The notes under the pieces are model-generated. The model was not told the origin of the DNA and did no database searches. It saw only the letters and a list, made by a program, of their open reading frames with translations. 64,000 bases of DNA, from IMG/VR virus record IMGVR_UViG_3300034033_000050. One strand, given 5' to 3'. Position numbers and translations under genes: made by a program. This document shows, piece after piece, positions 159 through 63,741 of the stretch (the stretch's first letter is position 1; each line of letters starts with the position of its first letter). This DNA comes from a virus.

Positions 159-485
159 CTAATTTCTAAAATGAAACGCTATTTCGGTATTGGTTAAACT
201 AATATGTCTTAGATTACTCAACCCGCTTAAAAACTCGACATCATCCATATCAAGCGCCTTGGGGCTTTTATCATATCCCAAAATTTTAGAAGAGGGCATT
301 ATGAAATTAGCAATGTGTCCATGAATAGTTTCAAAGATAAAAACCTTTGGCAAGCAATTGAAATGCTCTCCTATATCTTTAATCAAACTTCTTGAAAGAC
401 TAGATAAACAAGCCACATCCTCATCATTGTAATAAATTTCTTGTGCCACCACTTCATTATTTTGAACACTTGCTGAATTACCCAT
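159..485 (-). CDS. hypothetical protein (108 aa)
   Basis: Intact ORF; upstream GC-N5-TATAAT promoter (ATTATA at 514-519 on +) and AG-rich RBS. Confidence 0.75.
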   Translation of the reverse strand: MGNSASVQNNEVVAQEIYYNDEDVACLSSLSRSLIKDIGEHFNCLPKVFIFETIHGHIANFIMPSSKILGYDKSPKALDMDDVEFLSGLSNLRHISLTNTEIAFHFRN

Positions 486-558
486 TTTCTCATTCTCTTT
501 GTTTAGATACTAGATTATACAAACGCTAATTAACCAACATCGCTCAAGCAACCGCCGC

Positions 559-7335: not shown

Positions 7336-7626
7336 GAAAAAAAAGAATAATTAGAGTTTTGCATAGTGAGGAAGTGCTGCGATCCCTGGTAGGAGCGAAG
7401 CAAAGACCAGGGATCGCAGCAAGACGAACCACTCTGCTAGACATATTCGGTATAAAACCAAGTGGACGATACATCACACCTCAAACATGCCTATAAGCCA
7501 AAACTCTAATTATCTTTTCTGTAACCAACAACCAATCATAATAAAATGAAGAAACATTCTGGTTGCCAATCACCCTTAAAAACCCCAGCAACCATGCCCT
7601 TGCAAGTTAACACATTGGTTACTGAT
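7336..7626 (-). ncRNA. candidate ~290-nt structured ncRNA or ssDNA element
   Basis: Motif promoter at 7633-7645; no ORF of 60 aa or more; perfect 15-bp IR 7347-7361/7499-7513; perfect 15-bp inner stem 7376-7390/7406-7420; 8-bp IR 7521-7528/7615-7622; U8 run right after the outer stem. Confidence 0.6.
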
Positions 7627-7644
7627 GTTAATATTATAGTCACG

Positions 7645-7797
7645 CTATAAATCACCAGATTTAATTCTGGTTCTTAAATCGGTTTTGCGTGACTGTCGCA
7701 AAGCCTTACCACTTTTTACGTGGACAGACCCTTTGCCCATTAATGGATGATTCCAAAACAGATTTCTCACAACTTTCTTATTTTTATTGTTTTTCAT
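7645..7797 (-). CDS. small basic protein (50 aa; start re-set to MKNNK)
   Basis: Motif promoter at 7825; Lys/Arg-rich. Confidence 0.6.
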   Translation of the reverse strand: MKNNKNKKVVRNLFWNHPLMGKGSVHVKSGKALRQSRKTDLRTRIKSGDL

Positions 7798-7889: not shown

Positions 7890-7964
7890 GCACTCTGCTG
7901 AATAAGCAGCTTAGAAAATAATATTTATAAAAATCCATTTACTGCTGAATAAGCAGCTTAGAAA
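7890..7964 (+). CRISPR. cas-less type I-F-like mini-array: two 28-nt repeats, one 19-nt spacer
   Basis: Repeats 7890-7917 and 7937-7964 share the identical 23-mer CTGCTGAATAAGCAGCTTAGAAA; the second matches the I-F consensus GTTCACTGCCGTATAGGCAGCTTAGAAA at 23/28 with a compensatory C-G to T-A stem change; TATAAT at 7882-7887; terminator at 8000-8025. Confidence 0.8.
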
Positions 7965-18695: not shown

Positions 18696-21023
18696 TTATT
18701 GTGAAATCACTCCAAGTATTGTTTTTCGCTCCAAGACTTCATGTTGAGTACAGGCTCTTTTAAACGCAGCTTCTTCCCCCACAATATATGCCATTTGCCG
18801 TCCTCTAGTAAGCGATGTGTACATTAAACAGCTAGACAACATCTTAAAAAAACTCATACTTAAAGGAAGCAAAATTGATAAAAATCCAGAGCCTTGCGAT
18901 TTATGGCAAGTGATTACGTGGCCCAATGTTAGCATACTTTCAATGTCAGATTTGTCATATCTGACAACCACTTCTTCGGCCGGATAATACGCCCATAATT
19001 TGAACTCATCTATATCAACTTTAATAACAGCACCAAGATATCCGTTGAATATTCTCTTTTTAGAATCATCAGGTACTTCTCTATTTGGTTCCTTGTTAAA
19101 CTCATCAATTGACATAACAGGCATATTAAAATTCTTTGTGTGTAAAACCTTATCCATCTTTTTAAAAAGAACCGTATTACCCATTGAATTAACAGAAAGT
19201 GCTACGCCTCCTGGGTTCAATGTATTCTGAATGGTTTGATTTAAATTATCCACTCCCAAAATACCTTTTTTCATTGGAACTATGACTTGAGTAGAATATA
19301 GAAACTTCTGAAAATCTCCTTTTTCAAATGCATCATTGAGCATCCCTTTTTTATTTTCAAATGCTTTTGCTACATGTAAGCAAATACGCATATTGTTATC
19401 ATTTCTCTGATTAGCTCTAACGTCCTTATCTCTGGATGGATTATTAATATTAAATGGCGCAAATGCAAAATCAGCATGTCTTGTATGATATTCAGGCACT
19501 TGGCCATTTCTTATCTTTTCTGCGTGTAGGGCGATCACTGAGTTCTCAGACTGTCTGTGGATCGTTTTAAGTTCAAGCACTGGCACTAACTTATTTTTTA
19601 TAACGTCAATAAACACAGCGCCTGCAGCAAGGGCGGGTAATTGAGATGGGTCCCCGACCAACACCAATCGCGCATCGGGATGAAGCTTACGCAATAACCG
19701 AGCAAATAAAACACTGTCCAACATACTGCACTCGTCAATTACTAAAACTTTAAAAGGAATGGTAGCTTCCTGCTTATATTTAACAAGTATAGACATAATT
19801 GTACCACCATCAAAACCACTTGCATTTTTAATCTTATCAGCAGCAATACCAGATAACGCAGTAACATATACCGAATCACGCGTGTAATAAGTTGAAAGAA
19901 GCTCCAATATACCCCTGGTAGTAAAAGTCTTACCGGTTCCTGCATAACCCACAAGCGCCATTATTTTGCGCTCATTTATAGCACGTATAGCACGCACCTG
20001 ATGAGAGTCATATTTATGCCCAGCTTTCTTTTCAAGACCAGCAATAAAATTATTCATTTTCTTTTCATTAAGCACAGGGAATATCATTTCATTACTGCGA
20101 CTATTGAAAAACTCATATAAAAACATTTCAGCATCATACAAACTTTTAAGACAATACATGTCGGCATTAAGACAGACAATCTTTTTTGTGTTTATCAATT
20201 TCTTAAGCGCAGCTTGGTAATCAAAACAATCCCTTGATGTCGTGCCTTTTGCAAATCGAATTAATAAATCATCAAGAATCTTATAGAGATCTATTTTAGA
20301 TACGATACTGTGCCCGTGCTCTTGACCAATCTGCTTAAGGCCATATATGACAGCACTGGAAATTCTAAAGATGGAATTAGGTTCAACCATTCCAGACTCC
20401 AAGGCTACTTCATCCAAGCCAATAAAGCCAATTCCACGAACATCGGTCAATAGATAAATGTTTTCATTAATCCTTCTAGCAATCCCTTCAATATCCTCTA
20501 GATAGTGCATATAGACGTTATTAACCTGGATTGGGGAAAAGCCCAGGGGTAAAAGTAGTTCGGAAATCTCTCTCATAGCAATATGCCTGTGCCATGAAGC
20601 GCATATAGTGGCCACCAAGGCTTTGTTAAATCCTTTCACATGCAAAAGCTCGTGAGGGCGATTTGCTATCATATCAGCAATTTTATCAGCACCAAAATGA
20701 TCTAATAAGTACAAAGTCTTTTTGGGCCCCAAACCTGTCACAACCTTGGTTAGAAAATAAAATATTGTGTCAGAACCAACAATCTCAATGGTTTGAATTT
20801 GTATTTGTAAATCTTTTGTTTTTTTATTTTCAACCCAGTGGCCAGTGACAGAAACATTCTCACCTTTTACCTTGTCAATGTTGCCAAGAGTGTGTTGGCC
20901 AAGAATAACCGTACCATTTTTAAGTTTCAAAATAGCAAAGTTATCTTTTTTATAAATAATGGTTTCAACAACCCCTTTTTGTTTAACTGTTTTACCCATG
21001 CTTGATTTTATATTTTCAGACAT
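18696..21023 (-). CDS. recD2: RecD2-like SF1B DNA helicase
   Basis: GYAGTGKT, VIDECSM, GDPSQLP, HRQ, TCHKSQG; N-terminal OB and HhH (GLG, GIG) regions. Confidence 0.88.
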   Translation of the reverse strand: MSENIKSSMGKTVKQKGVVETIIYKKDNFAILKLKNGTVILGQHTLGNIDKVKGENVSVTGHWVENKKTKDLQIQIQTIEIVGSDTIFYFLTKVVTGLGPKKTLYLLDHFGADKIADMIANRPHELLHVKGFNKALVATICASWHRHIAMREISELLLPLGFSPIQVNNVYMHYLEDIEGIARRINENIYLLTDVRGIGFIGLDEVALESGMVEPNSIFRISSAVIYGLKQIGQEHGHSIVSKIDLYKILDDLLIRFAKGTTSRDCFDYQAALKKLINTKKIVCLNADMYCLKSLYDAEMFLYEFFNSRSNEMIFPVLNEKKMNNFIAGLEKKAGHKYDSHQVRAIRAINERKIMALVGYAGTGKTFTTRGILELLSTYYTRDSVYVTALSGIAADKIKNASGFDGGTIMSILVKYKQEATIPFKVLVIDECSMLDSVLFARLLRKLHPDARLVLVGDPSQLPALAAGAVFIDVIKNKLVPVLELKTIHRQSENSVIALHAEKIRNGQVPEYHTRHADFAFAPFNINNPSRDKDVRANQRNDNNMRICLHVAKAFENKKGMLNDAFEKGDFQKFLYSTQVIVPMKKGILGVDNLNQTIQNTLNPGGVALSVNSMGNTVLFKKMDKVLHTKNFNMPVMSIDEFNKEPNREVPDDSKKRIFNGYLGAVIKVDIDEFKLWAYYPAEEVVVRYDKSDIESMLTLGHVITCHKSQGSGFLSILLPLSMSFFKMLSSCLMYTSLTRGRQMAYIVGEEAAFKRACTQHEVLERKTILGVISQ

Positions 21024-39084: not shown

Positions 39085-39157
39085 AAGCCATTATACAAAT
39101 ACAAAAAAAGGGCTGCAACCTATCAACCCTTTTAATTTGACACCATGTTTGTGGTAA

Positions 39158-50332: not shown

Positions 50333-50538
50333 TTTAAAGAGGCTAAATAACCATGAATTAGGGCAAAATACACCAATGAATAAAAAATGGGTGAAACCAA
50401 TGAAAATAAGGGGGTAAAAGAGAAATTAGACGTTGATTTAAACAAGTCCAACCCCCACAATTAAGAGGAGAAGGGGACAATAATTTCAGTAGATTCCGAA
50501 GTCAAGCAAATGAGTCTTCTTCTTAACTTTAAAACCTA

Positions 50539-50790
50539 TCAATTATTAGCGTTAATAACATCTTTTACCTCATGCAAGCAAAGCCAGTCCTTTAATTTAG
50601 AATAATTGCGTGGAATACTCTGCGTGATAATAGCAAAAGCATGGCGCTCAAAGACTGGGTTAGAAAGGCTGCAGCCACTAGCAGGGGTCAAAAACGCTCC
50701 ACTTGTTAGAACATATCGCTTGTTACACAACATGGGTTTATGTAAAGGCTCATTCTTCGCGATAATATCTTTGTCCATGAATCTCTGCAA
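50539..50790 (-). CDS. hypothetical protein
   Basis: Intact ORF at the operon end. Confidence 0.45.
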   Translation of the reverse strand: MQRFMDKDIIAKNEPLHKPMLCNKRYVLTSGAFLTPASGCSLSNPVFERHAFAIITQSIPRNYSKLKDWLCLHEVKDVINANN

Positions 50791-51262
50791 GAAAAATCAC
50801 TTTATCACTCTTAACCCACCAAGGAACAATATCCGGGTCAGTGTAGGGCGCAACTTTAGTGCTATAGTACAATGTAGCCCCAACCAATTGAGAAATGAAC
50901 GGGGGATTATTAGAGAGCATAAGCTTAGCTACATTAACGTCCTCAAACCAAGAATCGCGCTGGAATTTTGATTTAAGTTCTATTTCGTTAGATTTATCAT
51001 CACACTGCCAAGTAAAAGCACAGCCTTTGACGTTCTTGCCTTTTTGTACTACTTGACAGATATCATTTGAATATCTGCGGTCAGCAACACGCTCTAAGAC
51101 AATCTGTGATACTGCAATTTTAGATATCAAGGCTTCACCGCCAACCTCGAAATGCACATTTACAGCAAGGCAAATTACATCTCTTGAATAAACATCATAA
51201 TCACCAGACCTACAAACAGGTGAAAACCCCACCAACAAAAAAGCAATAAAAACAAACTTCAT
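50750..51262 (-). CDS. SleB-family cell wall hydrolase (lytic transglycosylase), secreted
   Basis: Signal peptide; CLAVNVHFEVGGE...AVSQIVLERV...ICQVV...AFTW...GATLYY. Confidence 0.8.
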   Translation of the reverse strand: MKFVFIAFLLVGFSPVCRSGDYDVYSRDVICLAVNVHFEVGGEALISKIAVSQIVLERVADRRYSNDICQVVQKGKNVKGCAFTWQCDDKSNEIELKSKFQRDSWFEDVNVAKLMLSNNPPFISQLVGATLYYSTKVAPYTDPDIVPWWVKSDKVIFLAEIHGQRYYREE

Positions 51263-51541
51263 TTACATGCCCGGTGATGGTCCACTGCTTTGCGCCACAG
51301 GAGCAGGTGTGTTATTGTTATCCATTTCAAACGCACTATTTAAATCAGCTGCCGCCTGATTTGGATCAAATGCAACCGGCTCATTACCGGGGCTATTATG
51401 AGACAAAGTAAGCTGATGAACCATATTGTCAACAGGTATCGTTCCTTGTCCACTAGCTCTATTGTAAAAAGCAGCTTCAATATTATCAGGTGCTTCATAA
51501 GCATCAGCAAAAGCATTTACATCTACGTAGTTATCGGTCAT
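51263..51541 (-). CDS. acidic hypothetical protein ending SGPSPGM
   Basis: Intact ORF within the operon. Confidence 0.7.
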   Translation of the reverse strand: MTDNYVDVNAFADAYEAPDNIEAAFYNRASGQGTIPVDNMVHQLTLSHNSPGNEPVAFDPNQAAADLNSAFEMDNNNTPAPVAQSSGPSPGM

Positions 51542-51564
51542 TTTAGTTCCTCTGTGTATATATT

Positions 51565-53796
51565 TTAAAAATTCAAATCTAATGTGGTTTGCACATTATT
51601 TGTATTACTGTGATTGTTTTCGGTTGTTACACCATTTTCTAAACTCAAATCATTTATTTCTTGATGCACGAAACTAGAATTCAGTTCAGAAGCAACATCA
51701 ATTCTAGCTTTTAAAACATCTAAAGATGCAATCGTGTGACTTGTTCTATTTCGCAATGCTATATTTTCATTTTCATAACTCATCAAATTAATATCTGAAA
51801 CATCAATACTACCCTGGGTCTCATATCCTAAATCACCAATGTTGGACGCATTACTAGATTTAAATTCCATAAAATCAACATCAGTAACACCATCAAGACA
51901 ATCCTTTACGTCACAAACATCTATTTTGACTCCAGATTTAACAACAACTCCAATAAAATCTTTAAGAGATGATAAATCAGCCAACAATACATCTGATACA
52001 TCCTTAGCACTAACCACATCTCCATCGATTTTATTAGGTGCATTTTTACAAACAACAATAGCATCTTTAACATAAGCTATTGAATCTATTGTATCTGAAC
52101 TCAAAAAAGACAATTCTTTAAGTTTTAATTTTGCATTCCCTGAAATTAGTTCAATTCGTTTCTCAGAGAGACCACCTGATAATTTGCCTTCATCTATGTT
52201 AAATTCATTCATGTAAGAATCAATAACAGCAGAGTTAACACCAATATTAGAAAGCCGAGAAACGACATCAAGGAAACCAGGTTTTTCTCCCATTAATGGA
52301 TCAGTAAAACTAATGGATATTTGCTCAATTGGCTCAAGTAAAGAAATTCTAGATGTTAAAAATGCTTTTTGTAAAACCTCCATCTCATCTTGCTCCCAAT
52401 CAGTAGTAATCCCGCCCTCCACAAAATCCATTTTCGTAGCCTCCCCATCATCCCCCATGGTATCGTTAAGTGAAGATGTATTTAGATTTGAATAAGCTGC
52501 GTCAAGTTTAATAACTTTATCAAAAGACAGGTCGAGCGCATCAGCAATATCAGTATCACTTGGCTTTTTTTGAAACCGCGAATAATATTCTCTTTTATAC
52601 TTCTTAATCTTAAGTATATCAATCCTGTCCTTTTCTGGCACTACAACAGTATTAAACATGTTATTAGATGCATTTCTTATAAATAATTCAGCGTAATGAG
52701 TAGCGTAAGCATTGAGTCTATTCCCATTGGCAACCCTGTATCTTTCTATGCCTTGGGTATATCCAAGAACAGCAGCAGAAGATAATTCATTGCGAATATC
52801 GTTAGAAGGATGGGGAAAGTTTTTAACGCGCTTATTTACAATGGTATAGATCCAATTAATATTTGCTTTTAGTAGTGTCTCAACATTCTTTTTATTAGCC
52901 CTATCAAAAGAGTTCAACTCCATAATATGTGATTGAATTTGAGAATAGGACATATTAAATTTGTTACCTAATGCTTGTTTAAGATTATAGACTTTTAAAG
53001 CCGCTTCACTTGTTGTTTTTGTTAAAACGCTCCCAGAAACACGCTCTAAAGAGCTTTTAAATTCATCAAGTTTTTTATCAATCGGATTATCTTTTTGTTC
53101 AATATATGTTCTAAATTGTGGACCAGATAAATTACAATCATCAACCAATAATGTTCTCAATTCCAGTCCGAAAACAGCCATGTCTCGTGCCACAAGGTCT
53201 GAATTAACTTTAAAAGCACTTAATGCATCCTTAGAAAAAATTAGGCTTCTTGATTTTGCTCCTATTTGCTTAGATATTTTTTTCATACTGTCTAGATCAC
53301 CTGTTAACCGGGATTTCATGTGTTTGTGATATAAACGATCTATTTCCATAAATGCCTTGGATAAAACACTTACATCAACATCATTACTTTCATACTTATC
53401 TACATTCTCTAAAGCCACATCACTTGGCTCGTCCGTTTCCCTTTTATTGCTTATAAATTTTAGCTCAGTATCTGGATAAGTGCCGCTTATTACATCGGCG
53501 TAGTTAATTTCTTTATTGTGAATTTGTACTATGCGCCTATGTAACAAATCAACATTACGTGGCACCGAAAAATATTCAGAAACTGTGTCTCTCTTAATAT
53601 TGCGCATATCAATAAAAACATTGAATTCAGCCTCCGCACTTAAATAGTTGGCATTAGTCTTTTTAACAGCTAATGGCACATATTCTTTATCATTGGTTTT
53701 GAAAAATTCATCGGCAAGTTCATCAGACTCATCTTTAAACAAGTCATCACTCATTATTGCATCAAATTCCAAATCTACTTCAGCTTTATCATTCAT
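51565..53796 (-). CDS. highly diverged RpoD (sigma-70)-derived protein
   Basis: Region 1.2 (YLSAEAE), NCR (LLVDDCNL..PQF), region 2 (LLKANINWI...GYTQGIERY...AYATHY), region 3 (KPSDTDIADALDL...SSLNDTMGDD), split region 4 (LLEPIEQ...GLSEKRIELISGNAKLKL). Confidence 0.8.
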   Translation of the reverse strand: MNDKAEVDLEFDAIMSDDLFKDESDELADEFFKTNDKEYVPLAVKKTNANYLSAEAEFNVFIDMRNIKRDTVSEYFSVPRNVDLLHRRIVQIHNKEINYADVISGTYPDTELKFISNKRETDEPSDVALENVDKYESNDVDVSVLSKAFMEIDRLYHKHMKSRLTGDLDSMKKISKQIGAKSRSLIFSKDALSAFKVNSDLVARDMAVFGLELRTLLVDDCNLSGPQFRTYIEQKDNPIDKKLDEFKSSLERVSGSVLTKTTSEAALKVYNLKQALGNKFNMSYSQIQSHIMELNSFDRANKKNVETLLKANINWIYTIVNKRVKNFPHPSNDIRNELSSAAVLGYTQGIERYRVANGNRLNAYATHYAELFIRNASNNMFNTVVVPEKDRIDILKIKKYKREYYSRFQKKPSDTDIADALDLSFDKVIKLDAAYSNLNTSSLNDTMGDDGEATKMDFVEGGITTDWEQDEMEVLQKAFLTSRISLLEPIEQISISFTDPLMGEKPGFLDVVSRLSNIGVNSAVIDSYMNEFNIDEGKLSGGLSEKRIELISGNAKLKLKELSFLSSDTIDSIAYVKDAIVVCKNAPNKIDGDVVSAKDVSDVLLADLSSLKDFIGVVVKSGVKIDVCDVKDCLDGVTDVDFMEFKSSNASNIGDLGYETQGSIDVSDINLMSYENENIALRNRTSHTIASLDVLKARIDVASELNSSFVHQEINDLSLENGVTTENNHSNTNNVQTTLDLNF

Positions 53797-53798
53797 AA

Positions 53799-55232
53799 CT
53801 ACATTCCTGGACCCGTAGGTTTATCATCGGGTGATTCATCATCAGACTCGTCATCTGATGGCCCTTTAACAGAATTATCATTTGTGTCCTTTTCATAGGC
53901 TTCAATTAATTCTTCTGACAATACATTTATATCTTGTTCTTTCTCAACTACACCAGCAGAAATATTAAACACTTGTGATAAATTGATCCCCGTTAAATCT
54001 ACAACATCTCCATCAACGGGTTCAACATCATCTGCATTAGGTGTTATTTCGTCATGGGTTTCAGCATTCAAACTATGCCCACCCCCATCCATTATTAAGG
54101 CGTTATCTAACTCTGCAACATTATATAAATCAGCATTAATATTATTTGAAGTATCTTTATACTGCTCATTTATAGATTTAACCTCATCTGCTAAATTAGG
54201 ACTATCTAAATCCAATACAGGGCCATTCCTTTTGTCCGTTTCATATGCATTAATTAATTCAGCGGCATTTATAACCCCTGTATTATCAACTCTCGCCTCA
54301 TCTTCATGTTCAGATTCTATGTAAGCGGGTGCAGAAATGAGGATTTTATGTAAATTGTTTTCACTCAAATCAAGTTTATTATATAGAGCATCCCACTCTA
54401 TGCGTTTTTTATCCATTTCAAAACGCATCATGGGTTCATCACTGGCCTGAACATCTGTATTTAATTTATCGAAATCATCTCTAGACAAATCATTAACATT
54501 AAAAGCGAAAAACACCAAATCATGGGGATGGGCCTTATCATTGTTTATTAATGCATCGGTTAATATACTTATATTTGCATGAGGCATATTAGCCAGATCT
54601 GTGTATTTCATAATTGAATAATTATTAAATGGTATTTTTACCACATCACTTATCAACTCATTAACATCAACACCTGTTACACTAGCAAATCCTACAAGCT
54701 GATTTGATAAAACTGGGTTTTTATGATTAGAAACATCATAACCGCTAATTAATGATTTCTGTATAGAACCTAAATCTACACCATTTTTTGTTTTAGCAAA
54801 TTCCAAAACCTTATCTGGAGCGTTTTCTAACAAAATCTTGTGCTGCTCACAAATTAGAGATAAAACGCTTGTTGCACCTTTTGCGTGTTCCAAAAATTTG
54901 ACATATTTAGGTAGGCCAGCATCATCACCATACTTAACATTAAGTTCGTTTGCTTGATGCAATCTTAAGTCTTCATCAGTTGTGTGAGCTATATCCATAA
55001 GGTTTTTTTGAGAATCGGCCATTTTAAACAAAACAGCTTTGTTCACCATGAAGTCATTATTAGGATTGTTGACTATGAAGTAAAAATTATCTTCAAATGT
55101 TCCAATTTCGGCAATTCTATCTCTTATGCCAGGATAATCAAAACCTTCGACATTAGCACTAAAAACAAGCAAATCATGACCAGAGCCAGTTTTAAGTAAA
55201 TTTAATTCTTCTTGATATTCTTGTTCGTTCAT
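53799..55232 (-). CDS. acidic hypothetical protein, paralog of 55237-56466, ending KPTGPGM
   Basis: N-terminal LLKTGSGHDLLVF motif shared with the neighbour. Confidence 0.8.
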   Translation of the reverse strand: MNEQEYQEELNLLKTGSGHDLLVFSANVEGFDYPGIRDRIAEIGTFEDNFYFIVNNPNNDFMVNKAVLFKMADSQKNLMDIAHTTDEDLRLHQANELNVKYGDDAGLPKYVKFLEHAKGATSVLSLICEQHKILLENAPDKVLEFAKTKNGVDLGSIQKSLISGYDVSNHKNPVLSNQLVGFASVTGVDVNELISDVVKIPFNNYSIMKYTDLANMPHANISILTDALINNDKAHPHDLVFFAFNVNDLSRDDFDKLNTDVQASDEPMMRFEMDKKRIEWDALYNKLDLSENNLHKILISAPAYIESEHEDEARVDNTGVINAAELINAYETDKRNGPVLDLDSPNLADEVKSINEQYKDTSNNINADLYNVAELDNALIMDGGGHSLNAETHDEITPNADDVEPVDGDVVDLTGINLSQVFNISAGVVEKEQDINVLSEELIEAYEKDTNDNSVKGPSDDESDDESPDDKPTGPGM

Positions 55233-55236
55233 AATA

Positions 55237-56466
55237 TTAACTTACACCAGGTCCAGTATTAGTCGGTTTATCGCCTTGTTTAAGTTCTGCCTGTTTAGCT
55301 TCTTCATTCTCAACATCTTTATTTAGGGATTCTTGCAATTCTTCATGAACATAAGGGGAATCCATTTTCATTTGGCGCTCAATAGAACTTATAACTTCCA
55401 ATTTGGGTTGGGAATTACTCATTGCTTGCATATCCTTATCCAAAGCCCCCATTAATTCATCGGCGTCATAAGGAGTGTCTGGATTTTGTAGAGCATCTTC
55501 CAAATAAACGAGATTGCTGGTAAATGGAAATTTACCATCAGTTGCCTCAGCAACATAATTTAATGTCTCAACCAAAGTTTTATCACCACCGTCATAATGT
55601 TGCATTAAGCTACTATAAAGCTTAATATTATTCATCTCACCAAAAATATCTTGCTCTATGGCATAAGCAATAGTAAATGACATAGAATGTGCATCATAAC
55701 TAGCTTTTCCACCTGACAAAACATACTGATTATTAAAAGAATCTATCAAATGATTTAAACCAAGATTTTGAATGCTTAAATCGGGTTTTAATTCTTCAAT
55801 TAAAGATAGTAAATTATTATTAAAAAAAGGAAGGTATACGTGACTATTAACGTTATCTACCTTTTCATCTGAATTCTTAACTGCGTTTAAAATATCAACA
55901 GCAGAAGCTAGAACAGGTTCAAACCCTAAAGTTGGATCTATATTCTGTAAATCCTCAATTGCAACATGAGCATTATCAAAATCATAATTAATGCCTGATA
56001 TGTTAATATTTAAATCATCTAGAGGTTGAAAAAAACGTGATGCATAATTAACCAAGGTTTTATGGGCTTTATGTAAATCCACACCAGGAACAAAACGTAT
56101 AAATTCACGCATCAACAATGCAGCACCTGGTCTATTTTCAAGATGCTTCTCAAAATGCCCAGAAACCAAATCAAGCACATTATTTGGATTAACATTTAGG
56201 TTAGATACCAAGTTATTAAAAAAAGAGGCGCTAGAATAAAAAGCTGCTCTATCTTCACGGTCTTGTCCATCATGATAAAATTCCAACAATTCAACACATT
56301 GCTTATTTATTTGGGGAAGTACATCATCACCAGATTTGTTTATTCTTTCAATTAATTTACCGACCATGGCTTGACCACCATGCTCACGTATAAAAACCAT
56401 GCAATCAGGTCCTGATCCACTTGCTATAAGCTTGTTTTGCCTTTTAAAAAATTCAGGATTTGCCAT
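55237..56466 (-). CDS. acidic hypothetical protein ending KPTNTGPGVS
   Basis: N-terminal LIASGSGPDCMVF motif. Confidence 0.8.
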   Translation of the reverse strand: MANPEFFKRQNKLIASGSGPDCMVFIREHGGQAMVGKLIERINKSGDDVLPQINKQCVELLEFYHDGQDREDRAAFYSSASFFNNLVSNLNVNPNNVLDLVSGHFEKHLENRPGAALLMREFIRFVPGVDLHKAHKTLVNYASRFFQPLDDLNINISGINYDFDNAHVAIEDLQNIDPTLGFEPVLASAVDILNAVKNSDEKVDNVNSHVYLPFFNNNLLSLIEELKPDLSIQNLGLNHLIDSFNNQYVLSGGKASYDAHSMSFTIAYAIEQDIFGEMNNIKLYSSLMQHYDGGDKTLVETLNYVAEATDGKFPFTSNLVYLEDALQNPDTPYDADELMGALDKDMQAMSNSQPKLEVISSIERQMKMDSPYVHEELQESLNKDVENEEAKQAELKQGDKPTNTGPGVS

Positions 56467-56468
56467 AA

Positions 56469-57959
56469 TTAACTCATGCTCGGTGCTGATGTTGGAACCG
56501 CTGGAATAACTTGAGGAACCTCAGAGAACTCAGCTTTCATTTCAGCTTGAATTTCTGGAACCTCTTCTTTGATAAATTTTACAGCCTCTACAAGCCCAAT
56601 CTGGATTTTTTTATGGAACGATTCCGTTTCCTCACCGGGCAAACTTTGTATTGCTGCAAGTGGTGTATTCTCATCATGTTGCGCTAATTTCTTTGCAAAC
56701 ATGGATAGGGTAGGGATGCCTTTATTCTTACCTTTTAAACCACCCATCAATGCAAGTTTGTCAATAGCACCTTCTGAATTTTTGGTGGTTGCTCTTGCAT
56801 ACCAAACCATCGCCTTTGAAACAACAGTTCCTTTATTAATTAAATTAGAAAGATGCTCATTATTGTTTTCCAAACAACCCAAAACCTTAGAACATTTCCC
56901 AGCTATCGACCACAAAGCAGCAGCACTTGATTCTGCATCCCCAATATAAGACATTATGTTTTGAGCACTGGTATCCAATTCCACATTTTCAAAACCAAGT
57001 GCTGATGTAAGCATAACAGCTCCACTTTCAGCAATTATATCTTCAAAATTATTATCATCATTATCCATGGCACTATGCAACCTGTTATCTCGCTTGAAAC
57101 CACCTGTTGCTTTTATGAATTCTCTTGCTTGTATTGAAGTGTATTCCAAGATTGCCTGCTTATCTTTATCTTCAATATTAGATGAATCTATTCCAAATTC
57201 AATAGGATCACGAATAAGCAATTTATCATTTACAGCATCATATTTACCAAGATGAGCTGATTGTTTAAGTAAGTCAACATCAACACCATTGTCAGCAATT
57301 AATTCCACTAATGCTTTATGGCTTTCATTTAAAGGCACTTCGTTAATAGAAGGAATAATCATCATGTCAGCGGGCAATCCTGCAAATTCAGCGGCATTGA
57401 AAACCGTATACTCTCTAAATTTACCAGGGACTATTTGACTTACAGTATCTCTATCTGGGTTATAAGACATGCCATTAATGCTTTCAGGCTCTCCCTTAAC
57501 CCTTGCATTTCTTAAATCTTCTTCAGTAACATCTTCAAAACCTTTAACCTTTAATCTGAATTTCTGAATTATAGAAAGTTTTTCCATTTCAACATTGAAA
57601 GATAAAGGGAAAAAAGAAGGGCAGCCCATGTTATCACCTGGCTCAATCGGTACACCATTTTTATTGGAGTAGTAACCACCAGCAGCTTTTGCTTGAGAAA
57701 GAGTTAAGAATACATTTGAAACTTTATTACCATGACCTTTGACCGTAGACAGCCATTTAGAATATATCTTCATAAACATGCTATTTCTAGATGAAAAGTG
57801 CGCCTTGTTATCACGAAGATAACCACCAATTATATTGCCAGCAAAAGAATGTGTAAGAGGATGAGAGCCAGTTGCGGTGATCTCATTCATTTTTAATACG
57901 ATACCATCAAGCGCCTCATCAATTCCTGCGCCTAAATTAGCGTTTTTGTGTGTTGTCAT
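56469..57959 (-). CDS. ardC: ArdC-family antirestriction ssDNA-binding protein (start re-set to MTTHK)
   Basis: FSSRN, LTLSQAKAAGG, YTVFNAAEFAGLP, YDAVNDKLLI, EDIIAESGAVML; HExxH degenerate (REFIK). Confidence 0.7.
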   Translation of the reverse strand: MTTHKNANLGAGIDEALDGIVLKMNEITATGSHPLTHSFAGNIIGGYLRDNKAHFSSRNSMFMKIYSKWLSTVKGHGNKVSNVFLTLSQAKAAGGYYSNKNGVPIEPGDNMGCPSFFPLSFNVEMEKLSIIQKFRLKVKGFEDVTEEDLRNARVKGEPESINGMSYNPDRDTVSQIVPGKFREYTVFNAAEFAGLPADMMIIPSINEVPLNESHKALVELIADNGVDVDLLKQSAHLGKYDAVNDKLLIRDPIEFGIDSSNIEDKDKQAILEYTSIQAREFIKATGGFKRDNRLHSAMDNDDNNFEDIIAESGAVMLTSALGFENVELDTSAQNIMSYIGDAESSAAALWSIAGKCSKVLGCLENNNEHLSNLINKGTVVSKAMVWYARATTKNSEGAIDKLALMGGLKGKNKGIPTLSMFAKKLAQHDENTPLAAIQSLPGEETESFHKKIQIGLVEAVKFIKEEVPEIQAEMKAEFSEVPQVIPAVPTSAPSMS

Positions 57960-58100
57960 TATTTTTTCTCTTCTACAGTAAGCCTTATGCTTTGAGTCGA
58001 GTTTAATACAAAAGTATAAAAAACAAAAGAAAAAAAAGGGTTGAAAATTAAAAGTTATTAAAAATAACCAAATTTCAACCCCTGATGCCAAATAAAAATA

Positions 58101-62082: not shown

Positions 62083-63741
62083 ATGATGAAAAAAAAAGAT
62101 AAAAGGAAAAAAATGTTAAGCAAAGAAGAAGAAGAAAAAGAACGCATTAAAGAAAAGCTTAAAAAGCAATATTTAGAATCAGCGGAAACTGAGTATGATG
62201 ATAATGAAAAAGTATCTAACAGTCTTCTTGATACTCCTTCCATGATAAATGCTCAAGCAAATAATATAAATGAACAAACCAAATTTGATGACGTAGACAT
62301 TGATGATTTATGTGAGATAGGTGAATCCAAAAACTTAAATTTAGATGATTACGAAATAATCACAGATACTACAGCATACGAAGATTATGGAATAAAACCA
62401 TTTGAACATTTCGGGAATAAAAAAGTTGCTATAACAGAAGAAATTATAAACAAAAACAGATTGATCCAAACCGAAAGGAGTATAGAAAGGTATGTAGGGC
62501 AAATCTTTCCATCAAATAAATCAGAAAGATTAAACAAGGAATACAGCAAGCAATGGCCAGTAAAGGCAAGACATAAAATTTCTGGAAAAGTCATAACTGT
62601 GGGAACCCAAGGAATAAAGATAAAACCATCGCTTGATAAACTTCGGTATACCACAGAGACATTGAAAATATATTGGGCACTAATATTTTTGTGGAACGCA
62701 AATGGCTGTCCAGAAGCTAATGTTGAGATTGAAAGCAATTTAAGTGATCTTTGTAAAATACTAACCATCGAAAAAAATGGGGAAGTATATAAAAGGCTAA
62801 TCAAAGAATTATATTGCCTTAAGGAGACAAGTTTAGAATTCTTGCGCTCGTTTGAAGTAAAGGGCGGGGAAAAATACAAATCCAGAAACATAAATATATT
62901 AACTGAATTCAATCACAATTATCGTGAGAAAACACAAAATAAATACGAAAAAGCATTAGAATTAGACAAAGAACACCAAAGCAAACAAAAATTTTCTTTT
63001 AAATTCAATTCTGACATTATTGAAAACCTCAAAAACAAAGTAACAATCCCGGTTAACCTAAAAGTATTGAATTCAATTCGGTCATCTATTGCTCAAAGCA
63101 TGTACACAAAAACCAACAAAATATTAATGTGGCGGTATAAAGAAGCACTGAGAGGGGGGATAGTAGACTATGAAAATACAGCGCGAAGAATTGTTGGAGA
63201 AATAGGATTAAAACAAAAAAACTATAAATACCCATCAAGAAGAAAAGCATTAATAAATTTAATAGTCAAGGCTCTTGATGGAAAAGAATTAACACAACCA
63301 GGCTACACAATAAAAGCAGAATTATTTGATGCTGCAAACATGGATTACAAAGTAAGATTTACTTTGGTTGTGGATAAAACTAAAATAAAAAAATCAAATA
63401 GGCCAAAAGTTATTAATACTGATCCTGATGTAATAAGGACAATTATAGATAGAATCAAGGAATACATTCAACCAAAAACTAACAAAGATGATGACGCATA
63501 TAAGATTTATGCACAAGTTTATTCTTATGATCTTATTAATGTAGCTGTTGGCCAAGCTAGAGAAAAAGAAGAATATTTAAAAACAATAGGCAATGAAGTA
63601 ACTAATAGAGGCGGCTGGTTTTCTAATACACTTCACCAAGAAGTTCATAAAAAAAGGCTTAAATGGATTGATGGATGTGATGATAACAATGAAAGTTGTC
63701 CAATTTTAAAAAGATTAAAAAATGAAGGTTACATAGTCTAA
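62083..63741 (+). CDS. putative plasmid replication initiator (winged-helix Rep) with acidic N-terminal extension
   Basis: Adjacent to iterons and the AT-rich tract; LKIYWAL...LSDLCKIL...YKRLIKEL..L...F pattern typical of Rep winged-helix proteins. Confidence 0.7.
   Translation: MMKKKDKRKKMLSKEEEEKERIKEKLKKQYLESAETEYDDNEKVSNSLLDTPSMINAQANNINEQTKFDDVDIDDLCEIGESKNLNLDDYEIITDTTAYEDYGIKPFEHFGNKKVAITEEIINKNRLIQTERSIERYVGQIFPSNKSERLNKEYSKQWPVKARHKISGKVITVGTQGIKIKPSLDKLRYTTETLKIYWALIFLWNANGCPEANVEIESNLSDLCKILTIEKNGEVYKRLIKELYCLKETSLEFLRSFEVKGGEKYKSRNINILTEFNHNYREKTQNKYEKALELDKEHQSKQKFSFKFNSDIIENLKNKVTIPVNLKVLNSIRSSIAQSMYTKTNKILMWRYKEALRGGIVDYENTARRIVGEIGLKQKNYKYPSRRKALINLIVKALDGKELTQPGYTIKAELFDAANMDYKVRFTLVVDKTKIKKSNRPKVINTDPDVIRTIIDRIKEYIQPKTNKDDDAYKIYAQVYSYDLINVAVGQAREKEEYLKTIGNEVTNRGGWFSNTLHQEVHKKRLKWIDGCDDNNESCPILKRLKNEGYIV

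Follow-up and report, generated by a model that had tools for sequence, protein, structure and literature searches.

Early operons that launch a transcriptional cascade are familiar from phage T7 (gene 0.3, encoding Ocr, and gene 1, encoding an RNA polymerase, RNAP) and from SPO1 (the sigma factor gp28). In sigma70, the textbook basis of promoter recognition and melting is the W433/W434 dyad, Q437/T440 and the contacts of region 4.2. In group 2 jumbo phages, RpoD-like sigmas are presumed to bring in the host core polymerase (PMC7824862). The Bacillus subtilis plasmid pBS32 encodes SigN (ZpdN), a sigma that is intrinsically toxic (PMC6751061, PMC10601692). Here we describe a sigma gene in IMG/VR virus record IMGVR_UViG_3300034033_000050, of which a stretch of 64,000 nucleotides (the 64 kb window) was analysed. 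Judged from its sequence and a structure model, the 743-amino acid (aa) product is a member of the sigma-70 family. We put the chance that it is a functional sigma of RpoD descent somewhat above even.

RpoD-like sigmas of mobile elements are already known from the jumbo phages and SigN. What is new here is a very rare family, distinctive changes in the protein and a set of uniform, unusual promoters. Like the jumbo-phage sigmas (PHROG 351), the window protein is an RpoD-like sigma on a mobile element without its own RNAP and a presumed recruiter of host core. It differs in that tblastn of a phage collection gave three weak sigma2–3 matches only (24–27% identical), in having an extension and insertions of its own, and in an element that has a Rep/iteron module and whose covered sequence, the 64 kb window and ~37 kb of a relative's contig, showed no virion genes. 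SigN is also a sigma-70 family protein of a large plasmid and, when expressed, acts on the host by way of the core RNAP pool. Compared with the window sigma by description only, SigN differs in its Gram-positive host, short length, lack of the non-conserved region (NCR) and DNA-damage-induced role. The analogy with T7 and SPO1 would lie in anti-restriction and an own specificity factor coming first, followed by many uniform element promoters. The specificity factors of those systems are a single-subunit RNAP and a short phage sigma; that of the window is an RpoD-derived sigma.

Sigma domains and relation to RpoD

The Pfam model Sigma70_r3 (PF04539) matches aa 394–463 with 28.6 bits (gathering cut-off 25.3). 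About 25 NCBIfam sigma models match below their thresholds, led by models of RpoD/SigA type (47 and 46 bits) and followed by SigB/F/G and FliA. Cut-offs of the RpoD models are missed, at 25.7 versus 555 bits for PRK05658 and 45.8 versus 354 bits for RpoD_Cterm. PHROG 351, an RNA polymerase sigma factor family, aligns to aa 269–473 (profile positions 469–669 of 928, E 4.9e-13), and phmmer against the PDB aligns aa 338–462 to mycobacterial SigA (E 7e-7). An AlphaFold2 (AF2) model from an alignment of 148 sigmas reaches pLDDT >90 over aa ~290–470 and 70–90 in parts of 470–585. Foldseek and VIA-align of this model returned sigma factors only. Residues 212..568 superpose on Mycobacterium tuberculosis SigA 236..525 by VIA (Z 11.8, 286 residues); since the alignment extends that far, sigma4 is present and ends near aa 565.

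For descent, a profile of the three family members described below was compared with seven gammaproteobacterial RpoDs (E. coli and six more). Family positions 5–565 correspond collinearly to E. coli 57–604 over 506 columns (Prob 97.3, E 1.6e-11). The N-terminal 300 aa alone, with sigma2 excluded, match E. coli NCR residues 138–302 in hhalign (E 2.5e-4, score 37.2), against scores of 14.6 +/- 2.3 for forty column shuffles (maximum 20.8) and 18.3 for the reversed query. MAFFT gave an independent collinear alignment of the family with RpoD, with shared landmarks DV(I/M)SG, a CV..C...F block and ANLR/ANIN. An AF2 model of aa 30–320 from an alignment containing RpoD (pLDDT 81, pTM 0.77) superposes on E. 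coli sigma70 106–391 (Z 16.8, rmsd 4.2 Å, 234 residues), and its top structural matches are all NCR-bearing proteobacterial sigma70s. Since the alignment already included RpoD rows, this structural match is to some extent circular, a problem that does not touch the sequence statistics. Sequence and models together support descent of the sigma gene, carried on a mobile element, from a proteobacterial RpoD, NCR included.

Compared with proteobacterial RpoD (PRK05658/NF004208, TIGR02393), the window protein keeps the order acidic linker, 1.2, NCR (~240 aa), 2.1–2.4, 3.0–3.2 and 4.1–4.2. It also keeps the predicted NCR and sigma2–4 folds, the equivalents of N383, Y430 and T432, and the GDD..DF.E finger. 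It differs in being ~20% identical in sigma2–3 and in lacking the folded part of region 1.1, its first residues corresponding to E. coli position ~57. It further differs in a 5-aa insertion in the 2.1–2.2 loop, a second one within sigma4 and an extension of 178 aa at the C-terminus, and in its place on a Rep/iteron element rather than the chromosome. The sigma4 insertion amounts to a net ~26 aa, as 44 residues separate the SISF motif from the recognition helix versus 18 in E. coli. In profile comparisons the extension resembled neither RpoD nor any other part of the protein, its own sigma4 included. An Atlas search gave no usable match, and the extension has no recognisable fold or family.

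The contacts named above are replaced. Substitutions are numbered as in E. coli RpoD, with registers taken from PDB, BLASTP and profile alignments. The RpoD motif YATWWIRQAITR becomes YATHYAELFIRN. In the mycobacterial SigA alignment STYATWWIRQAITR stands opposite NAYATHYAELFIRN, and BLASTP against E. coli RpoD gives the identical register. Region 2.4 carries W433H, W434Y, R436E, Q437L, T440R and R441N. Region 2.3 carries F419Y, E420R, Y421V, R423N, Y425N and F427L, with Y430 and T432 kept. Region 3.0 has H455K and E458I, and region 4.2 has R584E, E585K, R588E and Q589L, with R586 kept. In region 2.2 (Q406S, E407A, N409V) the motif DLIQEGNxGL is degraded to ELSSAAVLGY. Net charge is +6 versus +8 in E. 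coli sigma70 for sigma2, +2 versus +3 for region 4.2 and -8 versus -10 for the finger.

The first-pass annotation had described an RpoD-derived sigma on a mobile element with altered -10 and -35 readers, and the profile, structure and synteny results bear this out. Its quoted motif substitution is exact in both the SigA and RpoD alignments. Retention of region 1.2, the proteobacterial NCR and regions 2–3 stands on the RpoD profile alignment with its controls and on AF2/VIA. It was also right that region 4 is split by an insertion and that there is a C-terminal extension, but its sizes of ~40 and ~190 aa were too large.

Relatives are few. One, P0002, at 62% identity, came from a word-indexed search of 5.8 billion clusters. 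HMMER on 1.84 billion cluster representatives added one full-length member, P0003 (29% identity, E 2e-89), all remaining matches being generic sigmas with E>=1e-9. The source of P0003 is a metagenome-assembled genome from sulfur deposits of the Fani Maore submarine volcano (PMC12261689); run SRR29593758 and assembly GCA_045267885.1 from these deposits contain the relatives. The family totals three sequences, including the window protein, across the 1.84 billion representatives searched. No sigma relatives were found by tblastn in a plasmid collection, and a family-alignment search for related loci in IMG/VR, GTDB genomes and JGI metagenomes found no relative. Neither phages nor plasmids gave a match when 24 kb of the window were searched by megablast. 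The P0002 and P0003 loci share the order ribonucleotide reductase (RNR) small subunit, 322-aa protein, ArdC-like protein, sigma, 93-aa protein and hydrolase, and both belong to one Rep-ori-RNR-ArdC-sigma-hydrolase backbone with the window.

Against the closer relative (L001), dN/dS is 0.08 in sigma2, 0.10 in sigma3, 0.05 in the finger and 0.17–0.25 in the extension (0.19 overall). These ratios are low in every part, extension included, so purifying selection acts on the whole open reading frame (ORF). The best-kept blocks of the 29%-identity pair are the acidic N-terminus (42%), the sigma3.2 finger (50%) and sigma4.1/4.2 (39–42%). Across this pair the 2.3/2.4 pattern YA.xYAEL..RN is invariant (Y364, Y368, A369, E370, L371, R374, N375), and variation within the family falls on the region 2.2 core-binding surface, the 4.2 base-contact positions and position 433 (H/H/S). 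The sigma diverges more (29% identity) than its operon neighbours (45–48%). The family offers a natural RpoD descendant that replaced all the textbook recognition and melting contacts while under strong purifying selection.

Promoters of the element

The coding strand of the window carries 40 copies of the motif G[CT]-N5-TATAAT and the other strand 3; they usually lie ~40 nt ahead of an ORF. This strand bias confirms the promoter set that the first-pass annotation had reported as GY-N5-TATAAT. Intergenic TATAAT sites have GY at -19/-18 in 30/41 cases and TG at -15/-14 in 0/41. The best TTGACA match at 16–18 bp from these sites is no better than at random positions. The promoter logo has further signal at T-29, G-28, a T-tract at -25..-21, A-20 and C-13. 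Since this signal lies at -29/-28 and -25..-18, the promoter is bipartite, with a proximal upstream element instead of a -35. The -10 is degenerate within the motif (TATTAT, TAAAAT, TACAAT and others). The motif is also found in the relatives L001 and L002. In the window, the 7.2-kb sigma operon is the longest motif-free stretch, and the 322-aa gene just upstream of the operon has a motif promoter.

In many units a terminator T-run leads straight into a G(C/T)-N5-TATAAT promoter, for example at 39102, 35209, 11945 and 9007 (-). Such junctions may explain part of the logo T-tract.

Weighing the possible functions

We favour a working sigma. Conservation of the sigma finger, NCR, sigma4.1 and sigma2 fold argues for docking on a proteobacterial core, and the invariant DNA-facing residues of 2.3/2.4, together with sigma70-like electrostatics, argue that DNA is still read. 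Because of the same invariance and electrostatics, we prefer a working sigma with altered specificity to an inert decoy. Initiation independent of a -35 would fit the variation at 4.2 base-contact positions. On entry, the element would express a dedicated operon from its own conserved leader, encoding an ArdC-like protein, two uncharacterised proteins, the sigma, a 92-aa protein and a hydrolase. The sigma would take the place of host sigma70 on the host core enzyme, and the bound core would be steered to element promoters without a canonical -35. The most economical regulon would be the 40–60 uniform promoters [TG-N2-TTTnTa-G(C/T)]-N5-TATAAT, with no -35 and no extended -10 TG. The outcome would be an early-to-delayed cascade like that of T7 or SPO1, an analogy suggested by the anti-restriction and sigma genes behind a private leader and the uniform, non-sigma70-like promoters elsewhere. 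A functional sigma with this motif regulon is roughly half as likely, in our judgement, as a functional sigma as such. Slightly more doubtful is a version in which the remodelled sigma4 (insertion and extension) and the altered 2.4 helix read a bipartite promoter, -29..-18 abutting TATAAT, within a T7-like cascade. If true, such bipartite reading would dispense with two defining features of sigma70 initiation, the -35/17-bp geometry and the tryptophan wedge.

Several observations weigh against a working sigma that reads the motif promoters. TATAAT is the exact sigma70 consensus, and the protein lacks W433, W434, Q437 and T440, which serve T-12 reading and melting. Because these T-12 readers are lost, the motif could be read just as naturally by host sigma70, possibly together with another factor. 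The region 3.0 helix, the likeliest reader just upstream of the -10, differs between two motif-carrying clades. The degraded region 2.2 is the main core-binding motif and is poorly conserved within the family. Pfam models for sigma2 and sigma4 (Sigma70_r2, PF04542; Sigma70_r4, PF04545) have no match at E<=1. The sequence covered is 64 kb of a ~143-kb element plus the ~37 kb from a relative. Assignment of the promoters to this sigma is the weakest step, and its standing against a regulon outside the window is about evenly balanced. Such a regulon, which might consist of late, transfer or virion genes within the other ~79 kb, would leave the motif promoters to host sigma70, perhaps helped by the T-tract or another element factor. 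The degeneracy of TATAAT resembles sigma70 -10 usage, counter-defence genes need expression immediately on entry, and the 322-aa gene upstream of the operon uses the motif, all of which fit this alternative along with the missing T-12 readers. It has to account for motif promoters that lack both -35 and TG, since E. coli-type sigma70 promoters of that kind are normally weak without a helper, and the 64 kb yielded no second promoter class. We regard a regulon elsewhere as possible but rather unlikely. Our likelihoods were judged separately and do not sum to one, and the one for a regulon elsewhere overlaps that for a functional sigma.

The first-pass annotation had left the choice between a sigma of new specificity and a decoy; the former fits better (2.3/2.4 invariance, finger, charge), and we keep the latter as an unlikely alternative. 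A decoy would bind host core through sigma3.2, sigma4 and the NCR without productive initiation, competing for core RNAP and so throttling or re-balancing host transcription; the host would be shut off or taken over, a mechanism that has been proposed for the toxicity of SigN. The melting dyad and the -12 and -35 contacts are indeed replaced, some with reversed charge (R436E, R584E, R588E). The sigma gene shares its operon with one for anti-restriction, many counter-defence genes lie in the same island, and the toxicity of SigN is a plasmid precedent. But helix 2.4, which faces DNA, is the most conserved part of sigma2, and the core-binding surface of region 2.2 is less so. Sigma2 and 4.2 also keep a sigma70-like net positive charge, and a decoy would have no need for a conserved 178-aa extension or conserved N383 and Y430 equivalents. 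Far less probable is a sigma-like scaffold with a role other than initiation, such as a sensor or effector of a conflict system, as suspected for MzaA. Sigma-like proteins do recur in defence and conflict loci, the extension is large and unexplained, and the protein evolves faster than its neighbours. The match to the MzaA model NF041931 is weak, however, at 15.3 bits versus an 800-bit cut-off. PADLOC profiles match neither the sigma nor its six neighbours, the neighbours are not defence-system partners, and the sigma finger and RpoD collinearity are retained.

With the dozens of near-identical promoters without a -35 nearby, the sigma makes a compact, testable system for the evolutionary re-engineering of sigma specificity and melting. 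The locus is also relevant to the way in which large plasmid-like elements, while establishing themselves, gain control of host transcription. Immediate experimental access is limited by the rarity of the family and by uncultivated, probably marine gammaproteobacterial hosts.

Operon, leader and host element

The sigma gene is the fourth of six genes on the minus strand (Table 1). Its ATG lies 2 nt past the stop of the upstream gene, with an AGGA ribosome-binding site ahead.

Table 1. Features of the sigma gene and its operon in window coordinates, with aa positions in the sigma protein
Feature	Position	Strand	Evidence and remarks
Complete sigma gene, 743 aa + stop	51565..53796	-	ORF reading; dN/dS 0.19 overall against the L001 orthologue
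Acidic N-terminus, aa 1-48, net charge -9	53653..53796	-	Aligns with acidic linker after region 1.1; 42% identical in the 29%-identity homologue
Region 1.2-like segment, aa 49-75	53572..53652	-	YLSAEAEF.. versus LLTREGEI..
NCR homologue, aa 76-300	52897..53571	-	hhalign and shuffle controls, MAFFT, AF2/VIA
Sigma2 (2.1-2.4), aa 301-387	52636..52896	-	dN/dS 0.08; 5-aa NFPHP insertion in the 2.1-2.2 loop
Altered 2.3/2.4 motif AYATHYAELFIRN, aa 363-375	52672..52710	-	SigA/RpoD alignments
Sigma3 (3.0-3.1, aa 388-440) and sigma3.2 finger GDDGxATxMDFVEGG (aa 441-470)	52387..52635	-	PF04539
Sigma4, aa 471-565, recognition helix aa 545-564	52102..52386	-	
Insertion within sigma4, aa 499-541	52174..52302	-	One extra predicted helix
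C-terminal extension, aa 566-743 (178 aa)	51568..52101	-	Helical, acidic end; dN/dS 0.17-0.25
Six-gene operon with sigma gene	50750..57959	-	Intergenic gaps 0-23 nt; sigma is the fourth gene
Gene 1, ArdC-like anti-restriction protein	56469-57959	-	phrog_7245 and weak MPTase-PolyVal match
Gene 2, 409-aa protein	55237-56466	-	
Gene 3, 477-aa protein	53799-55232	-	
Gene 5, 92-aa protein	51263-51541	-	
Gene 6, SleB-type cell-wall hydrolase	50750-51262	-	PF07486
Terminator, then leader ahead of operon	57960..58095	-	Long hairpin + T8, then TTTGTATTAAAC ... AAGC-N5-GCTT

The leader core reads TTTGTATTA(A/C)AC, followed by a small palindrome, AAGC-N5/6-GCTT. All three elements have it: the counterpart in L001 (1160–1278) is nearly identical and that in L002 (5600–5656) is recognisable. 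Conservation is far above that of flanking coding sequence, and the leader occurs once in the window. A search for a second promoter class through the leader sequence TTTGTATTAAAC gave no enrichment within the 64 kb window, with the sigma operon as its only site. The leader holds no G[CT]-N5-TATAAT promoter, and we identified no convincing sigma70 promoter in it. A G-T-N4-TATACT in the leader was considered as the operon promoter and rejected, as L001 lacks it. The leader may act as an operator, as a promoter or at the RNA level.

Two further observations concern the operon. Four of its proteins (51263–57959, -) end in Pro/Gly/Ser tails (..SAPSMS, ..TGPGVS, ..TGPGM, ..GPSPGM), which are absent from the sigma and hydrolase, kept in L001 and mostly missing in the distant L002 element. 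After the hydrolase gene lie ~400 nt without a convincing ORF (50333–50750, -), which could encode a small RNA or have a regulatory role. Here, 3' of the hydrolase gene, is the region's only canonical-looking promoter match, TTGACT-17-TATTGT (50505–50477).

The window has 35% GC, with nearly all genes on the minus strand. They include SSB, RecD2, several orphan methyltransferases, Sir2, a 5'-nucleotidase, a PAPS-reductase-like protein, exonucleases, and parts of class II and class I-beta ribonucleotide reductases. No capsid, terminase or type IV secretion genes were seen in the window and the relative's contig. As such virion and secretion genes are absent from the sequence covered, the element resembles a plasmid or phage-plasmid that replicates as a Rep/iteron replicon and carries a counter-defence array similar to an early or leading region. 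The host is probably a marine gammaproteobacterium, as hinted by the NCR, the type I-F-like CRISPR repeats described below and the 5'-nucleotidase, whose nearest homologues are in marine Gamma- and Betaproteobacteria (47–57% identity). Comparison of RecD2 gave no taxonomic signal, and the Rep and ArdC-like proteins had no relatives in a plasmid database. Among 58 small ORFs there were no AsiA-, Gp2- or anti-sigma-like domains.

Homologous Rep-like proteins in the window (62083–63741, +) and in L092 (8452–9693, -) adjoin long non-coding regions of iteron type. The Rep-like protein adjoining the origin is common to the relative's element (25% identity, E 5e-12). Pfam has no family for either protein, and by sequence they may be an undescribed family of replication initiators.

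In the counter-defence array, two type I-F-like CRISPR repeats (CTGCTGAATAAGCAGCTTAGAAA core) lie 45 nt apart at 7892–7964 (+). One exceeds the gathering threshold of Rfam CRISPR-DR4 (37.3 bits), with a TATAAT just upstream on the + strand. The pair is a candidate solitary-repeat or mini-array that may serve as an RNA anti-CRISPR-like decoy. An Rfam scan for 6S-like and other regulatory RNAs found none, this repeat being the sole match. Earlier reading of the sequence had pointed out a retron-like non-coding unit without a reverse transcriptase at 7336–7645. In the distant relative's gene array, L002 encodes a 250-aa reverse transcriptase (PF00078) at 19518–20270 (+).

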